Assembly: GCA_963667785.2 (NCBI GenBank)
Contig: CAXXMU010000002.1
Location: 320,001 to 384,000, forward strand
Origin: Alphaproteobacteria bacterium
Lineage (GTDB): Bacteria; Pseudomonadota; Alphaproteobacteria; UBA828
Direction: 5' to 3'
DNA: 64,000 nt
The position numbers and the translations under genes were made by a program. The notes below the pieces were generated by a model. That model was not told the DNA's origin. It did no database searches and was given only the letters and a program-made list of their open reading frames with translations. Of the stretch, positions 55,275 through 62,945 are shown piece by piece; position 1 is the stretch's first letter, and every line of letters starts with the position of its first letter.

Positions 55275-56945
55275 GTGTACCGATACGACAGCTTCGACCG
55301 GGAATTCGTTCGCAATCGGGTCGCGCAGTTTCGCCAGCAGGTGGAGCGGCGGATCGACGGATCGCTCACCGAGGAAGAGTTCAAGCCGCTGCGGCTGATG
55401 AACGGGCTCTACCTGCAGCTGCACGCCTACATGCTGCGCGTGGCGATTCCCTACGGAACGCTCGACAGCCGCCAGATGCGGCAGCTGGCCCGAATCGCTG
55501 AGCGCTGGGACAAGGGCTACGGGCACTTCACCACCCGACAGAACGTCCAGTTCAACTGGCCTAGGTTGAAGGACGTGCCGGACATCCTCGATGCTCTCGC
55601 GGACGTGGAGATGCATGCGATCCAGACATCCGGGAACTGCGTCCGCAACGTCACCGCCGACCATTTCGCCGGCGCGGCCGCCGACGAGATCGCCGATCCC
55701 CGCCCGACCGCCGAGCTGCTCCGGCAATGGTCGACGGATCACCCGGAATTCGCGTTCCTGCCCAGAAAATTCAAGATCGCGGTGAGCGGCTCCCCGGTCG
55801 ACCGCGCCGTGACACGCGCGCACGACATCGGCATCCGTATCGTCCGCAACGGCGCGGGTGAGATCGGCTACGAGGTCTCGGTCGGCGGCGGGCTCGGGCG
55901 CACCCCGGTGATCGGAACGGTCATCCGCGACTTCCTGCCCGAGGGAGATCTGCTCCCCTACGTCGAGTCCATCCTGCAGGTCTACAACGCCATCGGGCGC
56001 CGCGATAACAAGTTCAAGGCGCGCATCAAGATCACGGTGGGCGAGCACGGGATCGAGGCATTCCGGCAGCGCGTCGAGAAACGCTTCCGGATTCAGCGGA
56101 GGGCATTCGAGGGTGCGGACCGGGCGCTCTTCGAGGACATCCGCACGATGTTCGCAGCGCCGGCATACATCGAGGCGCCGACCGGAGCGTTCGACGCGGC
56201 GCTCGCGCGCGATCCGGCGTTCCGGTCATTCGTCGACATCAATCTGCATCCGCACCGGAATCCGGACTACGTAATCGTCACCGTCTCGCTCAAGGCCCAC
56301 GGAGCGACGCCGGGCGATGCCACCGCGGAGCAGATGCGCGTCATCGCCGACCTGGCGGAGCGCTACGGCCATGACGAGATCCGGATCAGCCACGAGCAGA
56401 ACTGCATCCTGCCCCACGTGCACAGGTGCCACGTGCCGGCGGTGCATGCGGCGTTGCGAAAGGCGGGGCTCGCCACCGCCAACGTCGGGCTGGCATCGGA
56501 CATCATCGCCTGCCCGGGGATGGATTACTGCAATCTGGCCACCGCCCGCTCCATCCCCATCGCCCAGGGAATCGCCACCCGTGTGAAGGAGCGCGGGGAC
56601 GAGCGCCTTGTCGGCGATCTCAAGATCAAGATTTCCGGCTGCGTCAATGCCTGCGGCCACCACCATGTCGGCCATATCGGCATTCTCGGCCTCGATCGCG
56701 CCGGCGCCGAGAACTACCAGATCACGCTCGGCGGTGACGGAACCGAGACCGCTGCCCTCGGCGAACGCACCGGCCCGGGCTTTGCCTCAGATGACGTCGT
56801 CCCTGCCGTTGACCGGCTGATCGACACCTACCTCGAGCTCAGGTCAGACGAAGACGAAGCCTTTCTCGCGACCTACCGGCGCGTCGGCATGCAGCCGTTC
56901 AAGGCGGCGCTCTATCCCGACGCCGCACTGGCCACAGGAGGCTAG
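55275..56945 (+). CDS. cysI: Sulfite/nitrite reductase hemoprotein
   Basis: RLMNGLYLQLH, HFTTRQNVQ, FLPRKFK, ACPGMDYCNLA, SGCVNACGHHH. Confidence 0.92.
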   Translation: MYRYDSFDREFVRNRVAQFRQQVERRIDGSLTEEEFKPLRLMNGLYLQLHAYMLRVAIPYGTLDSRQMRQLARIAERWDKGYGHFTTRQNVQFNWPRLKDVPDILDALADVEMHAIQTSGNCVRNVTADHFAGAAADEIADPRPTAELLRQWSTDHPEFAFLPRKFKIAVSGSPVDRAVTRAHDIGIRIVRNGAGEIGYEVSVGGGLGRTPVIGTVIRDFLPEGDLLPYVESILQVYNAIGRRDNKFKARIKITVGEHGIEAFRQRVEKRFRIQRRAFEGADRALFEDIRTMFAAPAYIEAPTGAFDAALARDPAFRSFVDINLHPHRNPDYVIVTVSLKAHGATPGDATAEQMRVIADLAERYGHDEIRISHEQNCILPHVHRCHVPAVHAALRKAGLATANVGLASDIIACPGMDYCNLATARSIPIAQGIATRVKERGDERLVGDLKIKISGCVNACGHHHVGHIGILGLDRAGAENYQITLGGDGTETAALGERTGPGFASDDVVPAVDRLIDTYLELRSDEDEAFLATYRRVGMQPFKAALYPDAALATGG

Positions 56946-56946
56946 C

Positions 56947-57390
56947 GTGGAACGCGGGAGCCCCAGGATTCTCGTCCGCGACTCCGGGTTCCAGGACGAC
57001 GACTGGCGCGGCGAATTCATCCAGTGGAGCGGAGAGGGCGACCGTTCCGCTCTGCCTCACGGTGTCGCGTTGGATGTCGAGAACACCGTGCCGGCTGAGG
57101 ACATCGTGCCCCTCTTCGGGCGCATCGCTCTGATCCGCATCGCCTTTCCCTCGCATATGGACGGCCGGGGGTTCTCGCTGGCCCGTTATCTGCGCCTGCT
57201 CGGCTACCGCGGTCGGCTTCGTGCATCCGGCCGCTTCCTCGCTGATCAATACGCCATGGCCCGGCGAAGCGGCTTCGACGAGGTCGAAATCGACTCGACG
57301 CTCGCCGAGCGGCAGCCGGAAGAGCAGTGGCTGTTTCGCGCGAATTGGCGGACACACGACTATCGGGAGCGGCTGGGCCGGCGCCTGTAA
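56947..57390 (+). CDS. DUF934 protein
   Basis: FPSHMDGRGFSLAR.LR..GYRGRLRA...DQY...RSGFD. Confidence 0.85.
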   Translation: MERGSPRILVRDSGFQDDDWRGEFIQWSGEGDRSALPHGVALDVENTVPAEDIVPLFGRIALIRIAFPSHMDGRGFSLARYLRLLGYRGRLRASGRFLADQYAMARRSGFDEVEIDSTLAERQPEEQWLFRANWRTHDYRERLGRRL

Positions 57391-58889: not shown

Positions 58890-60092
58890 TCAGATCAGGT
58901 CCGCGCCGATCTTTTCCAACGGCTCGCCGTGCAAAGCCAAATACTTCAACAAGTGGGTGTAGAACCTGTCCAATCCTTCACAATAGACGGTGGGGTTGTC
59001 GAATCCATTGCTGCTCGCATACCGGTGTACCGGCTGACCGCTGCCACAGACGTCGCGCCAACAACAATCCGAACACGCAGATGCAGGTGTCTTCTTGAAA
59101 TATTCGAATTCGTGAAACAATGGATCCTGAATGATTTCCTCCAGGCTGAAGCTCTTCAGATCCCTGTACTCGTATCCGCTCCAGTACTTCGTGGATCTCA
59201 GCGTGTCGTCCGGCCCGACTCCGCCATCGGACGATACCGTAAGCAGAAGATAGTCCGGGTCACCTCTCCCGGCAGCGAAAAGGAAATTCCCGCTTCCGTA
59301 GAGTCGCGCCAGAAAGTGATCGATGAACCTGACGCCGACAGATTCCTCGTCATTCACCATCTGGTCGAAAATCTCGATCAGGAAATCCCCGTACGCTCCG
59401 GCATCGCCACCGAAATTGTCGTGGTTCAGGTCGGGGAGCAGGAAGTCGATGAGCCCCACGTGCAGGTCGCGGCGAAAGTGTTCGTAGATTTCCCTGGGAT
59501 CGAATTTCTCTCCGATCACAGCCAGGACCATGGGAGGCTGATGCAGGTGCTCCTGACATAGCGCCAGGCCGCGAACGGTCGCCCGGTAGGACGACCTGCC
59601 ATGATGATCGAGACGATGGGCGTCGTTGTGCACCTGCGCGCCGTCGAGGCTGACACCCACCTCCACGCCATGTCTGTTGAGAATCTCTATCCACTCGAGA
59701 TCGATCAGCATGCCGTTGGTCTGGATCGTCAGCGACAGGTCGACGATGCCCGCCAGACCCGATCTGATCTCATGGCAGATACCGTCGAGCCGGGCCTTCG
59801 GCATCAGGAGAGGTTCGCCGCCGTGCAGGTGGATCGCTATTCGTTGCAGCTCGTACTCTTCGGAGAATTGTCTGAGCCGCTGCACCAGCAGTGCGACCGT
59901 GTCATCCGATATGAACGCCGCATGACTCTTGTAGCTGTCGTCGCCCGCATTGAAGAAATAGCAATAGTCGCAATCCAGGTTACAGCGTTCGGTAATTTTC
60001 AATATGACTTCCAGCGTTTTGAGCTTGCGGAAGTTCACCGTTCTCCTATCGGTGGCGACAGGTGTCTTCGAGTCTTGCATCGCTGTGGCCAT
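58890..60092 (-). CDS. Radical SAM/SPASM peptide maturase (cyclophane-forming FxsB/XyeB/DarE-like); start 60092 or 60080
   Basis: ILKITERCNLDCDYCYFF, HGGEPLL, QTNG, GVSLDG, PDDTLR, CSDCCWRDVCGSG..HRY...NGFDNPTVYC. Confidence 0.88.
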   Translation of the reverse strand: MATAMQDSKTPVATDRRTVNFRKLKTLEVILKITERCNLDCDYCYFFNAGDDSYKSHAAFISDDTVALLVQRLRQFSEEYELQRIAIHLHGGEPLLMPKARLDGICHEIRSGLAGIVDLSLTIQTNGMLIDLEWIEILNRHGVEVGVSLDGAQVHNDAHRLDHHGRSSYRATVRGLALCQEHLHQPPMVLAVIGEKFDPREIYEHFRRDLHVGLIDFLLPDLNHDNFGGDAGAYGDFLIEIFDQMVNDEESVGVRFIDHFLARLYGSGNFLFAAGRGDPDYLLLTVSSDGGVGPDDTLRSTKYWSGYEYRDLKSFSLEEIIQDPLFHEFEYFKKTPASACSDCCWRDVCGSGQPVHRYASSNGFDNPTVYCEGLDRFYTHLLKYLALHGEPLEKIGADLI

Positions 60093-60440
60093 TGGAGTCA
60101 GCTCGAACGCGTCGCCGTCGCATGCGGGCAATTCCTGCCGAATGGCAGATCGTCGAGGCCTGCATTGAACGCGCGCCCCGGCGACGCGGCGAACTCAAGC
60201 GAGGCGACGGCTCTGTTCGGGGAACGATACCGCGCGTCTTTCAAGGTATGCGCCCGCCCGCCTGCCTCGGGCCGTCCGGGTCGAATTCCGCACTTGGTGT
60301 GCAAAGCGCCTGCCGACCGCCGCCAAGCCCCGCGGCCGTCGAGCGACCCCTTCGTCCGCAAAAGCCGATAACTCCCTCGAGCCTCTCCGGCTTCAGGAGC
60401 AGGCAACAGGCCCTTAACGCAGGCGACTACCCGCCGCTGC

Positions 60441-60713
60441 CTAATCGGTCACGGACGGCGCAGAGACGAAATTGCCGCCCGACCCGGGATGATTTGCCGC
60501 CACCACGGACGGCGCCGAGACGAAGTTGCCGCCCGACCCGGGATGATTTGCCGCCACCGCGGACGGCGCCGAGACGAAGTTGCCGCCCGATCCCGGATAG
60601 CCTGGGATCTTCTGCCGCAGATTCGGGCTGATCGCCTTACCTGCCGCTGCCCTCTGGTCCTCGGCCGAGATCCCCAGCTTCTCACGGAGCTTGCGTACTT
60701 TCAGGTCTTCCAT
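60441..60713 (-). CDS. Putative RiPP precursor with three tandem core repeats
   Basis: GAGGTG RBS; charged leader of about 38 aa, then (Y/H)PGSGGNFVSAPS x3; repeat differences are mostly synonymous. Confidence 0.82.
   Translation of the reverse strand: MEDLKVRKLREKLGISAEDQRAAAGKAISPNLRQKIPGYPGSGGNFVSAPSAVAANHPGSGGNFVSAPSVVAANHPGSGGNFVSAPSVTD
60450..60599 (-). repeat. 54-bp tandem repeat (about 2.8 copies) encoding the precursor cores
   Basis: Unit CACGGACGGCGCCGAGACGAAGTTGCCGCCCGACCCGGGATGATTTGCCGCCAC on the + strand. Confidence 0.92.
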
Positions 60714-60928
60714 GAGTCACCTCGTGGTCCGTGTGATAAATGGCAATCGGGAGCCTCTACTCTACACCCGGATCTCTCGATACAGAGAATTTATTTCCTA
60801 TAGATGCTCGGCACTTTTCTTATGCGGGCTCGGCTCGTGCGGCGATCCGCTCTGGCTCGGAGACTCGCCAAGCCTGCATCGTCGATCGCGAAGGCACGGT
60901 CCTGGGAGAACGCGCACTCGACGGGGCG

Positions 60929-61423
60929 TCAAAAGATGATGCTCACCGCCCCGTGCCAGGAGAGGTCCTCCAGATCCAGCACCGCGCGGCGGTACGCTAT
61001 CCTCAAGTCCCCGCCGTCCCTCCTCAGGATGTACTCGACGGTGCCGACGTAGGGCGCTCCTTCGCCGCTACGGAACCGGTAGACGAGGACGTTTGCGGAG
61101 ACCGACAGGTGCCCCTCGTCGGTCTCTTCGACGCGCACGTTGGAAACGAAGCGGCGGGTCCGCGACCGCGGGCGCTCGCGGTGGGAATAGCGGCTGTTCA
61201 AGCGCGCCGCTCGAGCGCGCAACCGGATGATATCGTCGTCGATGAACACCAGATCGCGCTTAGGGTCCCCTTCCGGCAAGTCCGTGGAGGGAACCACGTA
61301 CCGAGCGTCGTCCGTGAACAGGCCAACCCACTCCTCCAGCCTCCATTCGTCCAGAAGCGCCGCTTCCCTGAACAGGAACTCCTCGACCGTCGCCCGCAAC
61401 GAGCACCCGCTGTCGGCCGTCAT
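60929..61423 (-). CDS. Aromatic ring-hydroxylating dioxygenase beta subunit
   Basis: VEEFLFREAALLDEWRLEEW, PRSRTRRFVSNV; ATGA overlap with the alpha subunit. Confidence 0.9.
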   Translation of the reverse strand: MTADSGCSLRATVEEFLFREAALLDEWRLEEWVGLFTDDARYVVPSTDLPEGDPKRDLVFIDDDIIRLRARAARLNSRYSHRERPRSRTRRFVSNVRVEETDEGHLSVSANVLVYRFRSGEGAPYVGTVEYILRRDGGDLRIAYRRAVLDLEDLSWHGAVSIIF

Positions 61424-62778
61424 CGCTCGCCGGTCCGACAGTGCCCAGGGTCGCCGGCCTCCGAAGAAGCCGCTGCGGCTTGCGATGTTGCGGGCGGCCC
61501 ATCCTGTACGTCGGTCGTATCGAGGCCCTGCATATTCGCGTGCCACTGCCGCCAGAATCCCCGCATTTGGAGCTCGTCTGCCGTTCCCGGACAGGGCGTC
61601 AGCATGCCCCTCGAGATGTCGGACCACTCGGCTTCGGTAGCGCGGAAGCCGGCCTGACAGGATTCCAGCGCTTCCACGTCATCCGGTGTGGCAAAGCCGC
61701 CCGGTCCGAGGAAGGTCAGGTAGCTGTCGAGTCGGGTGGCCAGCACCGCGCCCGACTCCTCTCTGGGCACGAGGTGCCAGGCCGTGACCTCCATTCTGTC
61801 CGGTGACAGGGGCTCGATATACCTGATGCTGATCGCCACGAAGTCCATGATCAGCAGGTTCGGATAGACGAGCAGGTTTCGAGAGGTGTCGGCCATCCGG
61901 TAGGCACGGTCTTCTCCGTATGTCTGCACCAGCCGCTCGCGCACCCGCGCTATGCGCTCCCTGGCCTCCTCGCCGAATATCGGGTGCCAGCGGGCGATGG
62001 GGCGGCCGTTCCTGGCTATGTTCTCCGATACGCAGTGGCCGTTGCCCAAGGCCCTTCCTGCGCCGGGGGGACGGGCAGCTAGCGTGTCCCCGCTGTCGTC
62101 TGTCCCGAGGCCGGTCATATAATCCACGTAGGTCCGATGCGTCGGGATCAGGTGGTATCCATCGAGGCTGTTCTCGGCCAACAGCTTCCAGTTGGCCTTC
62201 ATGGCGTACTTGTTGGAACCGGGAATCACCCGCATCCCTTCCTCGGCCTGGTCGACGACCAGGTCAAGGTAGTCTCTGGCCCCCGCCAGGTAAGTGACCA
62301 GGTCCTCGCCCTGCGCGTTGAAGCTCACGAAGTAGAAGCCCCGGTAGTTGTCCACCCTGGGTGGCTTCTTCAGGCCGAGTTCGCTCGGATCGAAGTCGGG
62401 GCCATAGGCCTCTCTTCTGGGAACGCCGATCAGCTCGCCGCGGGTGTCGAAAGTCCAGGCGTGATAGAAGCACCGCAGAACCTCGGCATTCCCGGAATCG
62501 CGGCGGCATATCGTGGCACCCCGGTGCGGGCAGGAGTTGAAGAACACCCGTATCTGCCCGTCTTTGCCGCGAACAAAGAAGAGCGGTCGGCCAGCGACCG
62601 TGCGGCGGCGGTAGTCTCCGGGCCTCTCCACCTCCGATTCGTGTCCCAGGTAGATCCAGCATCTGTCGAAGATCAGTTCCCGTTCCCGCTGGAACAGATC
62701 GGAGGACGTCATGCACGACCGATGGACCCTGAAGACCCCGCGCTTCCGGTCGTCGATGATTAGGTCCTGGATGTCCAT
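61420..62778 (-). CDS. Aromatic ring-hydroxylating dioxygenase alpha subunit
   Basis: NSCPHRG...CFYHAW Rieske motif, NWKLLAENSLDGYHLIPTH, GPGGFATPDD. Confidence 0.92.
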   Translation of the reverse strand: MDIQDLIIDDRKRGVFRVHRSCMTSSDLFQRERELIFDRCWIYLGHESEVERPGDYRRRTVAGRPLFFVRGKDGQIRVFFNSCPHRGATICRRDSGNAEVLRCFYHAWTFDTRGELIGVPRREAYGPDFDPSELGLKKPPRVDNYRGFYFVSFNAQGEDLVTYLAGARDYLDLVVDQAEEGMRVIPGSNKYAMKANWKLLAENSLDGYHLIPTHRTYVDYMTGLGTDDSGDTLAARPPGAGRALGNGHCVSENIARNGRPIARWHPIFGEEARERIARVRERLVQTYGEDRAYRMADTSRNLLVYPNLLIMDFVAISIRYIEPLSPDRMEVTAWHLVPREESGAVLATRLDSYLTFLGPGGFATPDDVEALESCQAGFRATEAEWSDISRGMLTPCPGTADELQMRGFWRQWHANMQGLDTTDVQDGPPATSQAAAASSEAGDPGHCRTGER

Positions 62779-62945
62779 GAGATCACCCGTATGCCCCGAA
62801 TCTCGATTTACAAAAGGATGCCGGTGTTTCGTCGCAAGCGACTCTCGCAGCAGCGCGATTCGACCTGAAGGTCCTGTCGCCTCGCGAGGCGACAAACGCC
62901 AACATAGCGCCGCCGCCTTCGCAGGTCACAACGATCCACTGCGCT

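Follow-up and report, generated by a model that had tools for sequence, protein, structure and literature searches.

Triceptides are ribosomally synthesised peptides with post-translational modifications (RiPPs) in which an aromatic carbon is linked to the beta-carbon of residue i+2 within aromatic-X-X motifs (PMC11499958), and their precursors often carry several such motifs (PMC11002830, PMC11499958). The catalogue of putative triceptide pathways runs to about 3900 (PMC11499958), and in one characterised case, MscB of the FxsB family, C4 of Phe is joined to the beta-carbon of Ser (PMC11002830). In the minviopeptin pathway micABCD (Guo et al., PNAS 2026), the precursor MicA is cut by the alpha-ketoglutarate (alpha-KG)/Fe(II) enzyme MicC at Gly8 (..HAS/GGFTKDL, the slash marking the cut), whose N-C-alpha bond is broken in a strictly Gly-dependent reaction; Ser7 ends up amidated, and the released part carries an oxalyl group. 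MicC required an ADP-ribosylated substrate, and its R188 binds alpha-KG and is essential (PMC12912966). Here, we analysed a window of 64,000 nucleotides from an Alphaproteobacteria bacterium (assembly GCA_963667785.2, contig CAXXMU010000002.1, positions 320,001 to 384,000), in which a small gene with three 54-base-pair (bp) repeat units (gene A) is followed by a radical S-adenosylmethionine (rSAM)/SPASM maturase gene (gene B) and by a gene for a MicC-like oxygenase (gene C). Gene A very probably encodes a RiPP precursor that is modified by the gene B enzyme, and a scheme in which the three genes belong to the pathway of an uncharacterised triceptide-like RiPP probably explains the locus best.

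The precursor gene and its homologues

The product of gene A, as translated from its open reading frame (ORF), consists of MEDLKVRKLREKLGISAEDQRAAAGKAISPNLRQKIPG followed by YPGSGGNFVSAPSAVAAN, HPGSGGNFVSAPSVVAAN and HPGSGGNFVSAPSVTD; the unit pattern (Y/H)PGSGGNFVSAPS(A/V)VAAN occurs three times, with the final unit ending in SVTD before the stop codon. Tandem Repeats Finder, run on the window, reports the array at 60450-60596 (period 54, 2.7 copies, 95% matches, score 264). A search with the 90-amino-acid (aa) product retrieved 95 homologous proteins of 53-111 aa, which belong to no Pfam family and carry only the name 'hypothetical protein', and which share the 42-aa leader together with one to five copies of GGNF[V/I/L]SA[P/A]. 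No longer form of the precursor was present among proteins of 159-2000 aa, which counts as weak evidence.

Motif statistics were drawn from 91 homologues, the four visibly frameshifted ones (P0078, P0085, P0087 and P0092) being left out. One motif copy is present in 4 of these proteins, two in 20, three in 52, four in 14 and five in a single protein, giving 261 instances. GGNFVSAP is exact in 195 of them, and the remainder deviate conservatively (V replaced by I or L; P by A, I or T). Phe occupies its position in 260 instances, with a single Leu, while the aliphatic residue of F-x-S varies between V, I, L and even A. The first GG lies at a distance of 42 aa in 80 of the 91 homologues, and A, S or T precedes GG in 252 of the 261 instances. 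Between the motifs, by contrast with this regularity, the spacers come in seven lengths (2, 3, 7, 8, 10, 13 or 14 aa), and their 95 distinct sequences have no motif in common, many homologues having only GS, GA or GT there. The C-terminus is exactly ..FVSAP-COOH in 24 of the 91 proteins, an ending in keeping with 'FxSxx-COOH', the pattern from which Fxs takes its name.

Judging from these alignments, the conserved unit is GGNF[VIL]SA[PA], with the His and the VAAN residues sitting in the variable spacer and the first Tyr standing at the leader's end (..ISGY). The sequence-only reading of this DNA had correctly described the 54-bp units and their differences, as well as the GAGGTG Shine-Dalgarno sequence before the ATG. 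Its division of the array into two core variants, one led by Tyr and the other by His, is not supported by the comparison, which places the Tyr in the leader and the His in a spacer; the closest orthologue even has His in place of the Tyr.

Selection on the peptide emerges from comparison between loci. The comparison covered 21 loci, namely 19 genome records, the metagenome contig L025 and the window. Nineteen of them (the window and 18 fetched loci) supply 51 motif instances, in which G, G, N, F and S show no variation while two to four synonymous codons are in use for each of these residues. Relative to the orthologue in L006, the window's gene differs at 14 codons synonymously and at 7 by replacement (dN 0.047, dS 0.327, dN/dS 0.14), and dN/dS ranges from 0.00 to 0.21 in seven pairs of loci of equal architecture. 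Length differences among homologues amount to whole codons, and most related loci keep a Shine-Dalgarno sequence, GAGGTG or AAGGTG, in the same place. These comparisons indicate that gene A is a real, translated gene whose peptide is under purifying selection. The earlier proposal of a translated, repeat-bearing precursor selected at the peptide level is thereby upheld, the reading frame being kept across the 95 homologues apart from the four that look frameshifted.

The same cannot be said of the differences inside the gene, from which selection had originally been proposed. The units in the window differ by four synonymous changes (AAC/AAT, TCG/TCT, CCG/CCC and GGA/GGG) and two replacements (TAT/CAT, Tyr/His; GCG/GTG, Ala/Val), and at least four synonymous changes among six is not a significant outcome (binomial P = 0.0585, with 28% synonymous sites). 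Moreover, units 1 and 2 changed in parallel relative to L006, with TCG>ACA at codons 42 and 60, AAT>GGC at codons 56 and 74, and AAC>AAT at codons 45 and 63. Because the same codon changes recur in both units, the repeats appear to be homogenised and hence not independent of each other, and the differences between units within one gene are therefore weak evidence of selection. The claim of peptide-level selection thus stands on the comparison between loci, and a more general lesson is that such comparison, rather than the unit differences within a gene, carries a case of this kind.

Repeat numbers in this family derived from short-read metagenome-assembled genomes (MAGs) call for caution, because the array of L008 contains a run of N in the assembly (about 2760-2860) and public contigs break in the array of the window. 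Logan contigs from four runs end within it and none spans 60450-60596; a 538-base contig identical to 59964-60501 was found in two public runs.

The maturase, the oxygenase and the proposed pathway

The gene order A-B-C is conserved: the precursor lies directly upstream of gene B in all 21 loci, and gene C directly downstream of gene B in 19, including the loci with a single motif copy, L013 and L014. In NCBIfam, gene B scores best with YhhB (280.8 bits, 1.4e-83; curated cut-off 445), followed by XyeB (273.3 bits, 2.7e-81; cut-off 450) and FxsB (263.6 bits, 2.5e-78; cut-off 370), reaching none of the three cut-offs; the next family, anaerobic sulfatase maturase, follows at 144 bits with an E-value about 40 orders of magnitude worse, and the GrrM/OscB model gives 108 bits against a cut-off of 310. 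Fourteen sequences all share the CxxxCxxC motif (C50/C54/C57) and the C-terminal residues C353, C356, C357, C362 and C384. By sequence, gene B is a homologue of the three-residue-cyclophane maturases (3-CyFEs); its true start may be further in than the first listed TTG, because homologues align from residue 4-28. An aromatic-X-X motif stands beside this maturase in the form of F-[V/I/L]-S in every repeat. Since an invariant F-x-S with a variable middle residue fits the aromatic-X-X rule, one Phe-Ser cyclophane per motif is predicted, and we lean towards the formation of a cyclophane at this site. A His-Ser cyclophane is known too.

Further relatives of gene B occur elsewhere. The genome of the window holds a second, canonical triceptide cluster (L005, G000:C1:920096-924163) with a YhhA-family precursor (ORF 1227-1472; NF041705, 58.3 bits, cut-off 36) and a 726-aa enzyme (ORF 1438-3618) that passes the FxsB (514.7) and YhhB (489.4) models and to which an aKG-HExxH peptide beta-hydroxylase domain is joined as a fusion. 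On metagenome contig L027, three tandem gene B paralogues with 32-36% identity lie at 3431-7245, without an obvious precursor in a simple ORF listing, and the same kind of listing gave no recognisable precursor at the metagenome loci with 36-46% identity (L026-L028 and L031).

Gene C has no match in Pfam or NCBIfam. H124, D126, H212 and R152 are invariant in an alignment of 18 orthologues, and the first three remain so in 112 sequences. When the gene C profile was compared with the whole PDB, the sole match was MicC (9vkm_A, E 3.2e-6; residues 90-220 against chain residues 147-281), the triad H124/D126/H212 aligning with MicC H160/D162/H253 and R152 with the alpha-KG-binding R188, where the MicC numbers were counted along the alignment, allowing for a 20-residue chain offset. 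Among 1.84 billion representatives, 962 relatives were found at E <= 1e-3, most of them 270-290 aa long and having the C-terminal half in common.

An AlphaFold2 model of gene C built with 112 sequences reached a predicted local distance difference test score (pLDDT) of 95.1 and a predicted TM-score (pTM) of 0.91; it replaced a first model from 18 sequences (pLDDT 58.9), for which Foldseek gave no match at E <= 1e-3. The best Foldseek match of the later model is KdoO (E 3e-4, probability 0.99), and among the 50 matches listed the top 46 are all Fe/alpha-KG enzymes, two RmlC cupins appearing at ranks 47 and 49. VIA likewise returned KdoO (Z 8.6, root-mean-square deviation 3.7 over 165 residues) and KanJ (Z 7.4), the two structural neighbours reported for MicC (PMC12912966). 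As modelled, gene C has a double-stranded beta-helix fold. MicC itself (9vkm) is not among the Foldseek or VIA matches listed, so that the link between gene C and MicC rests on sequence. On these data, gene C is a MicC-like alpha-KG/Fe oxygenase with a functional tie to rSAM enzymes that form cyclophanes.

Among the longer relatives of gene C (at least 500 aa), four of six carry a CxxxCxxC motif at the N-terminus. P0102 (994 aa), P0146, P0193 and P0230 are natural fusions of an rSAM domain with a MicC-like domain. P0102, in which the latter lies at 565-690, scores 370.4 bits on the GrrM/OscB cyclophane-maturase model and so exceeds its cut-off of 310.

For the Phe-Ser link, the sequence of steps, the gene C reaction and the final product, we infer the following. 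The 42-aa leader presumably recruits the adjoining gene B enzyme, which most likely links the Phe ring to the Ser beta-carbon in each F-[V/I/L]-S and would thereby install one three-residue cyclophane per GGNFVSAP copy, three in the window. Gene C would most likely act on the modified peptide, by hydroxylation of a Gly alpha-carbon or by another hydroxylation. The former would break the chain and leave a C-terminal amide, and a cut at GG would free the leader and, in multi-copy precursors, split the units. That gene C cuts at the invariant Gly-Gly is speculative, however, and we hold it with considerable doubt.

Features of the window and gene neighbourhood

The features of the locus, all on the minus strand, are collected in the table.

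Features of the precursor locus in the 64,000-nucleotide window
Feature	Coordinates	Strand	Remarks
Gene C, MicC-like alpha-KG/Fe(II) oxygenase, 235 aa	58083..58790	minus	triad H124-D126-H212, R152
Gene B, rSAM/SPASM peptide maturase, 413 aa from first listed TTG	58890..60131	minus	NCBIfam, Pfam Radical_SAM
Non-coding spacer, gene A to rSAM gene, 309 bases	60132..60440	minus	
Gene A, precursor peptide	60441..60713	minus	90 codons plus stop; 42-aa leader, then three repeat units
Core motif copy 3, GGNFVSAP, codons 79-86	60456..60479	minus	followed by tail SVTD
Core motif copy 2, GGNFVSAP, codons 61-68	60510..60533	minus	from codon reading and homologue comparison
Core motif copy 1, GGNFVSAP, codons 43-50	60564..60587	minus	predicted cyclophane site F46-V47-S48
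Leader, codons 1-42 (MEDLKVRKLREKLGIS..PNL..KI.GY..)	60588..60713	minus	sequence conserved across homologues
Shine-Dalgarno GAGGTG	60718..60723	minus	4 nucleotides upstream of gene A ATG
Rieske oxygenase beta subunit, 164 aa	60929..61423	minus	Pfam Ring_hydroxyl_B; ATG overlaps alpha stop; cluster membership uncertain
Rieske ring-hydroxylating oxygenase alpha subunit	61420..62895	minus	Pfam Rieske, Ring_hydroxyl_A; cluster membership uncertain

The spacer between genes A and B has no significant RNA fold (z 0.50) and contains no terminator-like site. A search for promoters, terminators and attenuators between the precursor and the rSAM gene gave no promoter-like site, and the two terminator-like sites found, both outside this spacer, equal the chance expectation. 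In public contigs of related strains, 208 or 56 bases of the spacer are replaced.

A pair of genes for a Rieske ring-hydroxylating oxygenase lies within the fetched flanks of 12 of the 21 loci (the window, L006-L010, L012-L014 and L023-L025), in four arrangements, either upstream (same strand or divergent) or downstream (same strand or convergent). The beta subunit always accompanies the alpha subunit, its 164-aa form also being present in L002, and the identity of the Rieske proteins to those of the window (71-91%) tracks that of the rSAM enzymes. The Rieske oxygenase may be a member of the pathway or a co-travelling catabolic module. As a member it would be, to our knowledge, the first Rieske oxygenase of a RiPP pathway; a literature search on Rieske oxygenases with rSAM-modified precursor peptides gave, judged by title and abstract, nothing on a cyclophane-type peptide cluster. 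A transporter of the xanthine/uracil permease family (PF00860; about 590 aa, with a C-terminal extension) is encoded in 15 of the 21 loci, the window not being among them, in varying position and orientation (for example, L006:6585-8399, minus strand).

The MAGs that contain these loci are titled Alphaproteobacteria, Rhodospirillales, Gammaproteobacteria, Pseudomonadales, OMG group and, in one case, Thermodesulfobacteriota. An orthologue is present in only one of 40 relatives of the window's genome, and the distribution of the cluster is thus patchy; a metagenome scan added a single close locus, L025. In L007, a tyrosine-recombinase-like ORF (8214-8909, minus strand, judged from its translation) lies about 3 kb downstream of the cluster, which there lacks gene C, and hints at a rearranged mobile region. 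In the window itself, two ORFs on the plus strand at 55275-57390, by eye sulfite/nitrite-reductase-like and then DUF934-like, converge on the cluster; this flank is not common to the other fetched loci.

Alternative explanations and comparison with known systems

Several observations weigh against the A-B-C scheme. The precursor matches no NCBIfam or Pfam model, and five family members compared with the FxsA, YhhA and other named precursor models at E up to 10 gave chance-level matches only. Gene B reaches the curated cut-off of none of the named 3-CyFE families, because of which its chemistry could differ. The match between gene C and MicC is confined to the C-terminal 130 residues and of low identity, and the authors of the MicC study expect functional diversification among its homologues (PMC12912966); no ADP-ribosyltransferase was seen at the cluster of the window, although the MicC substrate needs ADP-ribosylation. 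Gene C is missing from L007 and L012, and neither a protease nor an exporter of the kind usual in RiPP clusters was found. The role of the invariant GG could also be limited to flexibility or to being recognised by the rSAM enzyme. Finally, none of the 16 listed public runs is an RNA run. The last point, together with the lack of a family model that fits the peptide, would also suit an unmodified small repetitive protein that simply has unrelated enzymes as neighbours. Such a protein would hardly adjoin an rSAM gene at every one of the 21 loci, across MAGs titled Alphaproteobacteria, Gammaproteobacteria and one Thermodesulfobacteriota, and its leader-plus-motif architecture is typical of RiPP precursors; we consider this explanation extremely improbable. 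That gene B modifies the peptide by other chemistry, whether at an aliphatic residue as TvgB does on TVGG, by epimerisation or by a link to Asn, is in our view unlikely. The missed cut-offs favour such chemistry, Asn is invariant like Phe and Ser, and TvgABC, in which a Gly-rich repeat precursor is combined with an rSAM and an alpha-KG enzyme, makes cyclopropylglycine (PMC11002830); yet the three best families of gene B are all cyclophane formers and far ahead of the next one, Phe is nearly invariant, and the aliphatic position varies too much to be a probable reacting residue.

A different question is how the peptide is released. According to the sequence-only reading, the precursor would be a set of cassettes, each repeat being a core and a conventional protease reading (A/V)VAAN as its spacer to give Tyr-led and His-led peptides, as in cyanobactins or dikaritins. 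Copy number does vary from one to five among homologues, as in multi-core precursors, and the two full spacers of the window are nearly identical; across the family, however, the spacers lack any shared motif, those reduced to GS, GA or GT are too short to hold a recognition site, the positions of the Tyr/His and the Asn are already altered in an orthologue of 92% identity (the closest one has Gly for the Asn), and no conserved protease gene lies beside the cluster in the fetched flanks. Cassettes of this kind are therefore very unlikely, and triceptide precursors with repeated aromatic-X-X motifs and an rSAM/SPASM enzyme offer a better analogy than cyanobactins or dikaritins. More serious, if still short of probable, is a single product with several rings, for which the whole C-terminal region would be one core, gene C would only decorate it, for example by beta-hydroxylation, and the leader alone would be removed. 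Characterised triceptide precursors hold two or three motifs per core, such as YSK, HAS and FTK in MicA, and hydroxylating alpha-KG partners are common, the aKG-HExxH domain fused to a YhhB-type enzyme in the same genome being one of them. Hypervariable spacers of up to 14 aa within one bioactive core would nevertheless be unusual, and the sole solved sequence relative of gene C cuts chains. At the other extreme, gene C would hydroxylate the first Gly of each GG, and the resulting cuts, without any protease, would free the leader and release every cyclophane unit, N-terminally oxidised and C-terminally amidated, with copy number setting the dose and the Rieske oxygenase and the permease adding ring hydroxylation and transport; this full version strikes us as quite unlikely.

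On the triceptide-like reading of genes A, B and C, about 100 small proteins from public genomes and metagenomes gain a biosynthetic scheme with a testable motif, F-x-S in GGNFVSAP, and MicC-type enzymes are extended to proteobacterial genomes, from runs labelled sponge metagenome. The precursor family is also a test case for oxidative cutting at Gly, in place of proteases, in the release of repeated cores, and a functional link to the Rieske oxygenase, if true, would amount to new chemistry of use to peptide engineers. A literature search with motif strings gave no relevant paper on the GGNFVSAP precursor family. The enzyme cluster of gene B may already be drawn, uncharacterised, in a published cyclophane-synthase similarity network; what is new here, within a triceptide-type system, is the repeat precursor, the MicC-like partner in Proteobacteria and possibly the Rieske and permease partners.

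The known systems resemble this locus in different respects. With cyanobactin and dikaritin cassettes it shares multiple copies per precursor in variable number, whereas conserved recognition sequences flanking the cores and a cluster protease are lacking here and the modifying enzyme is of another kind. TvgABC, whose TVGG repeats yield poly-cyclopropylglycine, likewise joins a repeat precursor to two enzymes, an rSAM protein from the sulfatase-maturase group and one of the alpha-KG/Fe type (PMC11002830), but nothing here corresponds to the reacting Val of TVGG, since the aliphatic position varies, gene B is closest to cyclophane formers and gene C lacks a Pfam match. The Gly-rich-repeat precursors of GrrM/OscB carry short repeated Gly-rich units on which an rSAM enzyme forms cyclophanes, and in P0102 an enzyme of the GrrM/OscB type is fused to a MicC-like domain; gene B, in contrast, stays far below the cut-off of that model.

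The minviopeptin pathway micABCD (PMC12912966) combines a 3-CyFE with a 'hypothetical' alpha-KG/Fe enzyme, as does this locus, where gene C is related to MicC by sequence and keeps both the triad and the Arg; in both precursors, Gly-Gly stands just before a Phe-x-x motif, here as [A/S/T]-GG-N-F-x-S. Unlike minviopeptin, the motif is repeated here, the 235-aa gene C product aligns only over its C-terminal half with the 295-residue MicC chain, an ADP-ribosyltransferase was not seen, and the hosts are proteobacterial MAGs, whereas MicC relatives with rSAM enzymes were reported in Actinomycetota and Bacteroidota (PMC12912966). From the triceptide systems (XncB, OscB, MscB, YhhB, HaaB and HtkB), this locus differs in that gene B lies under all curated cut-offs, that the family with the MEDLKVRKLREKLGIS leader and GGNFVSAP matches no model, and that long variable spacers separate one to five motif copies, unlike in characterised precursors. 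It agrees with them in the homology of gene B to YhhB, XyeB and FxsB and in the repeated aromatic-X-X motif, and the F-x-S found here is the very motif at which MscB forms its C4(Phe)-C-beta(Ser) link (PMC11002830).

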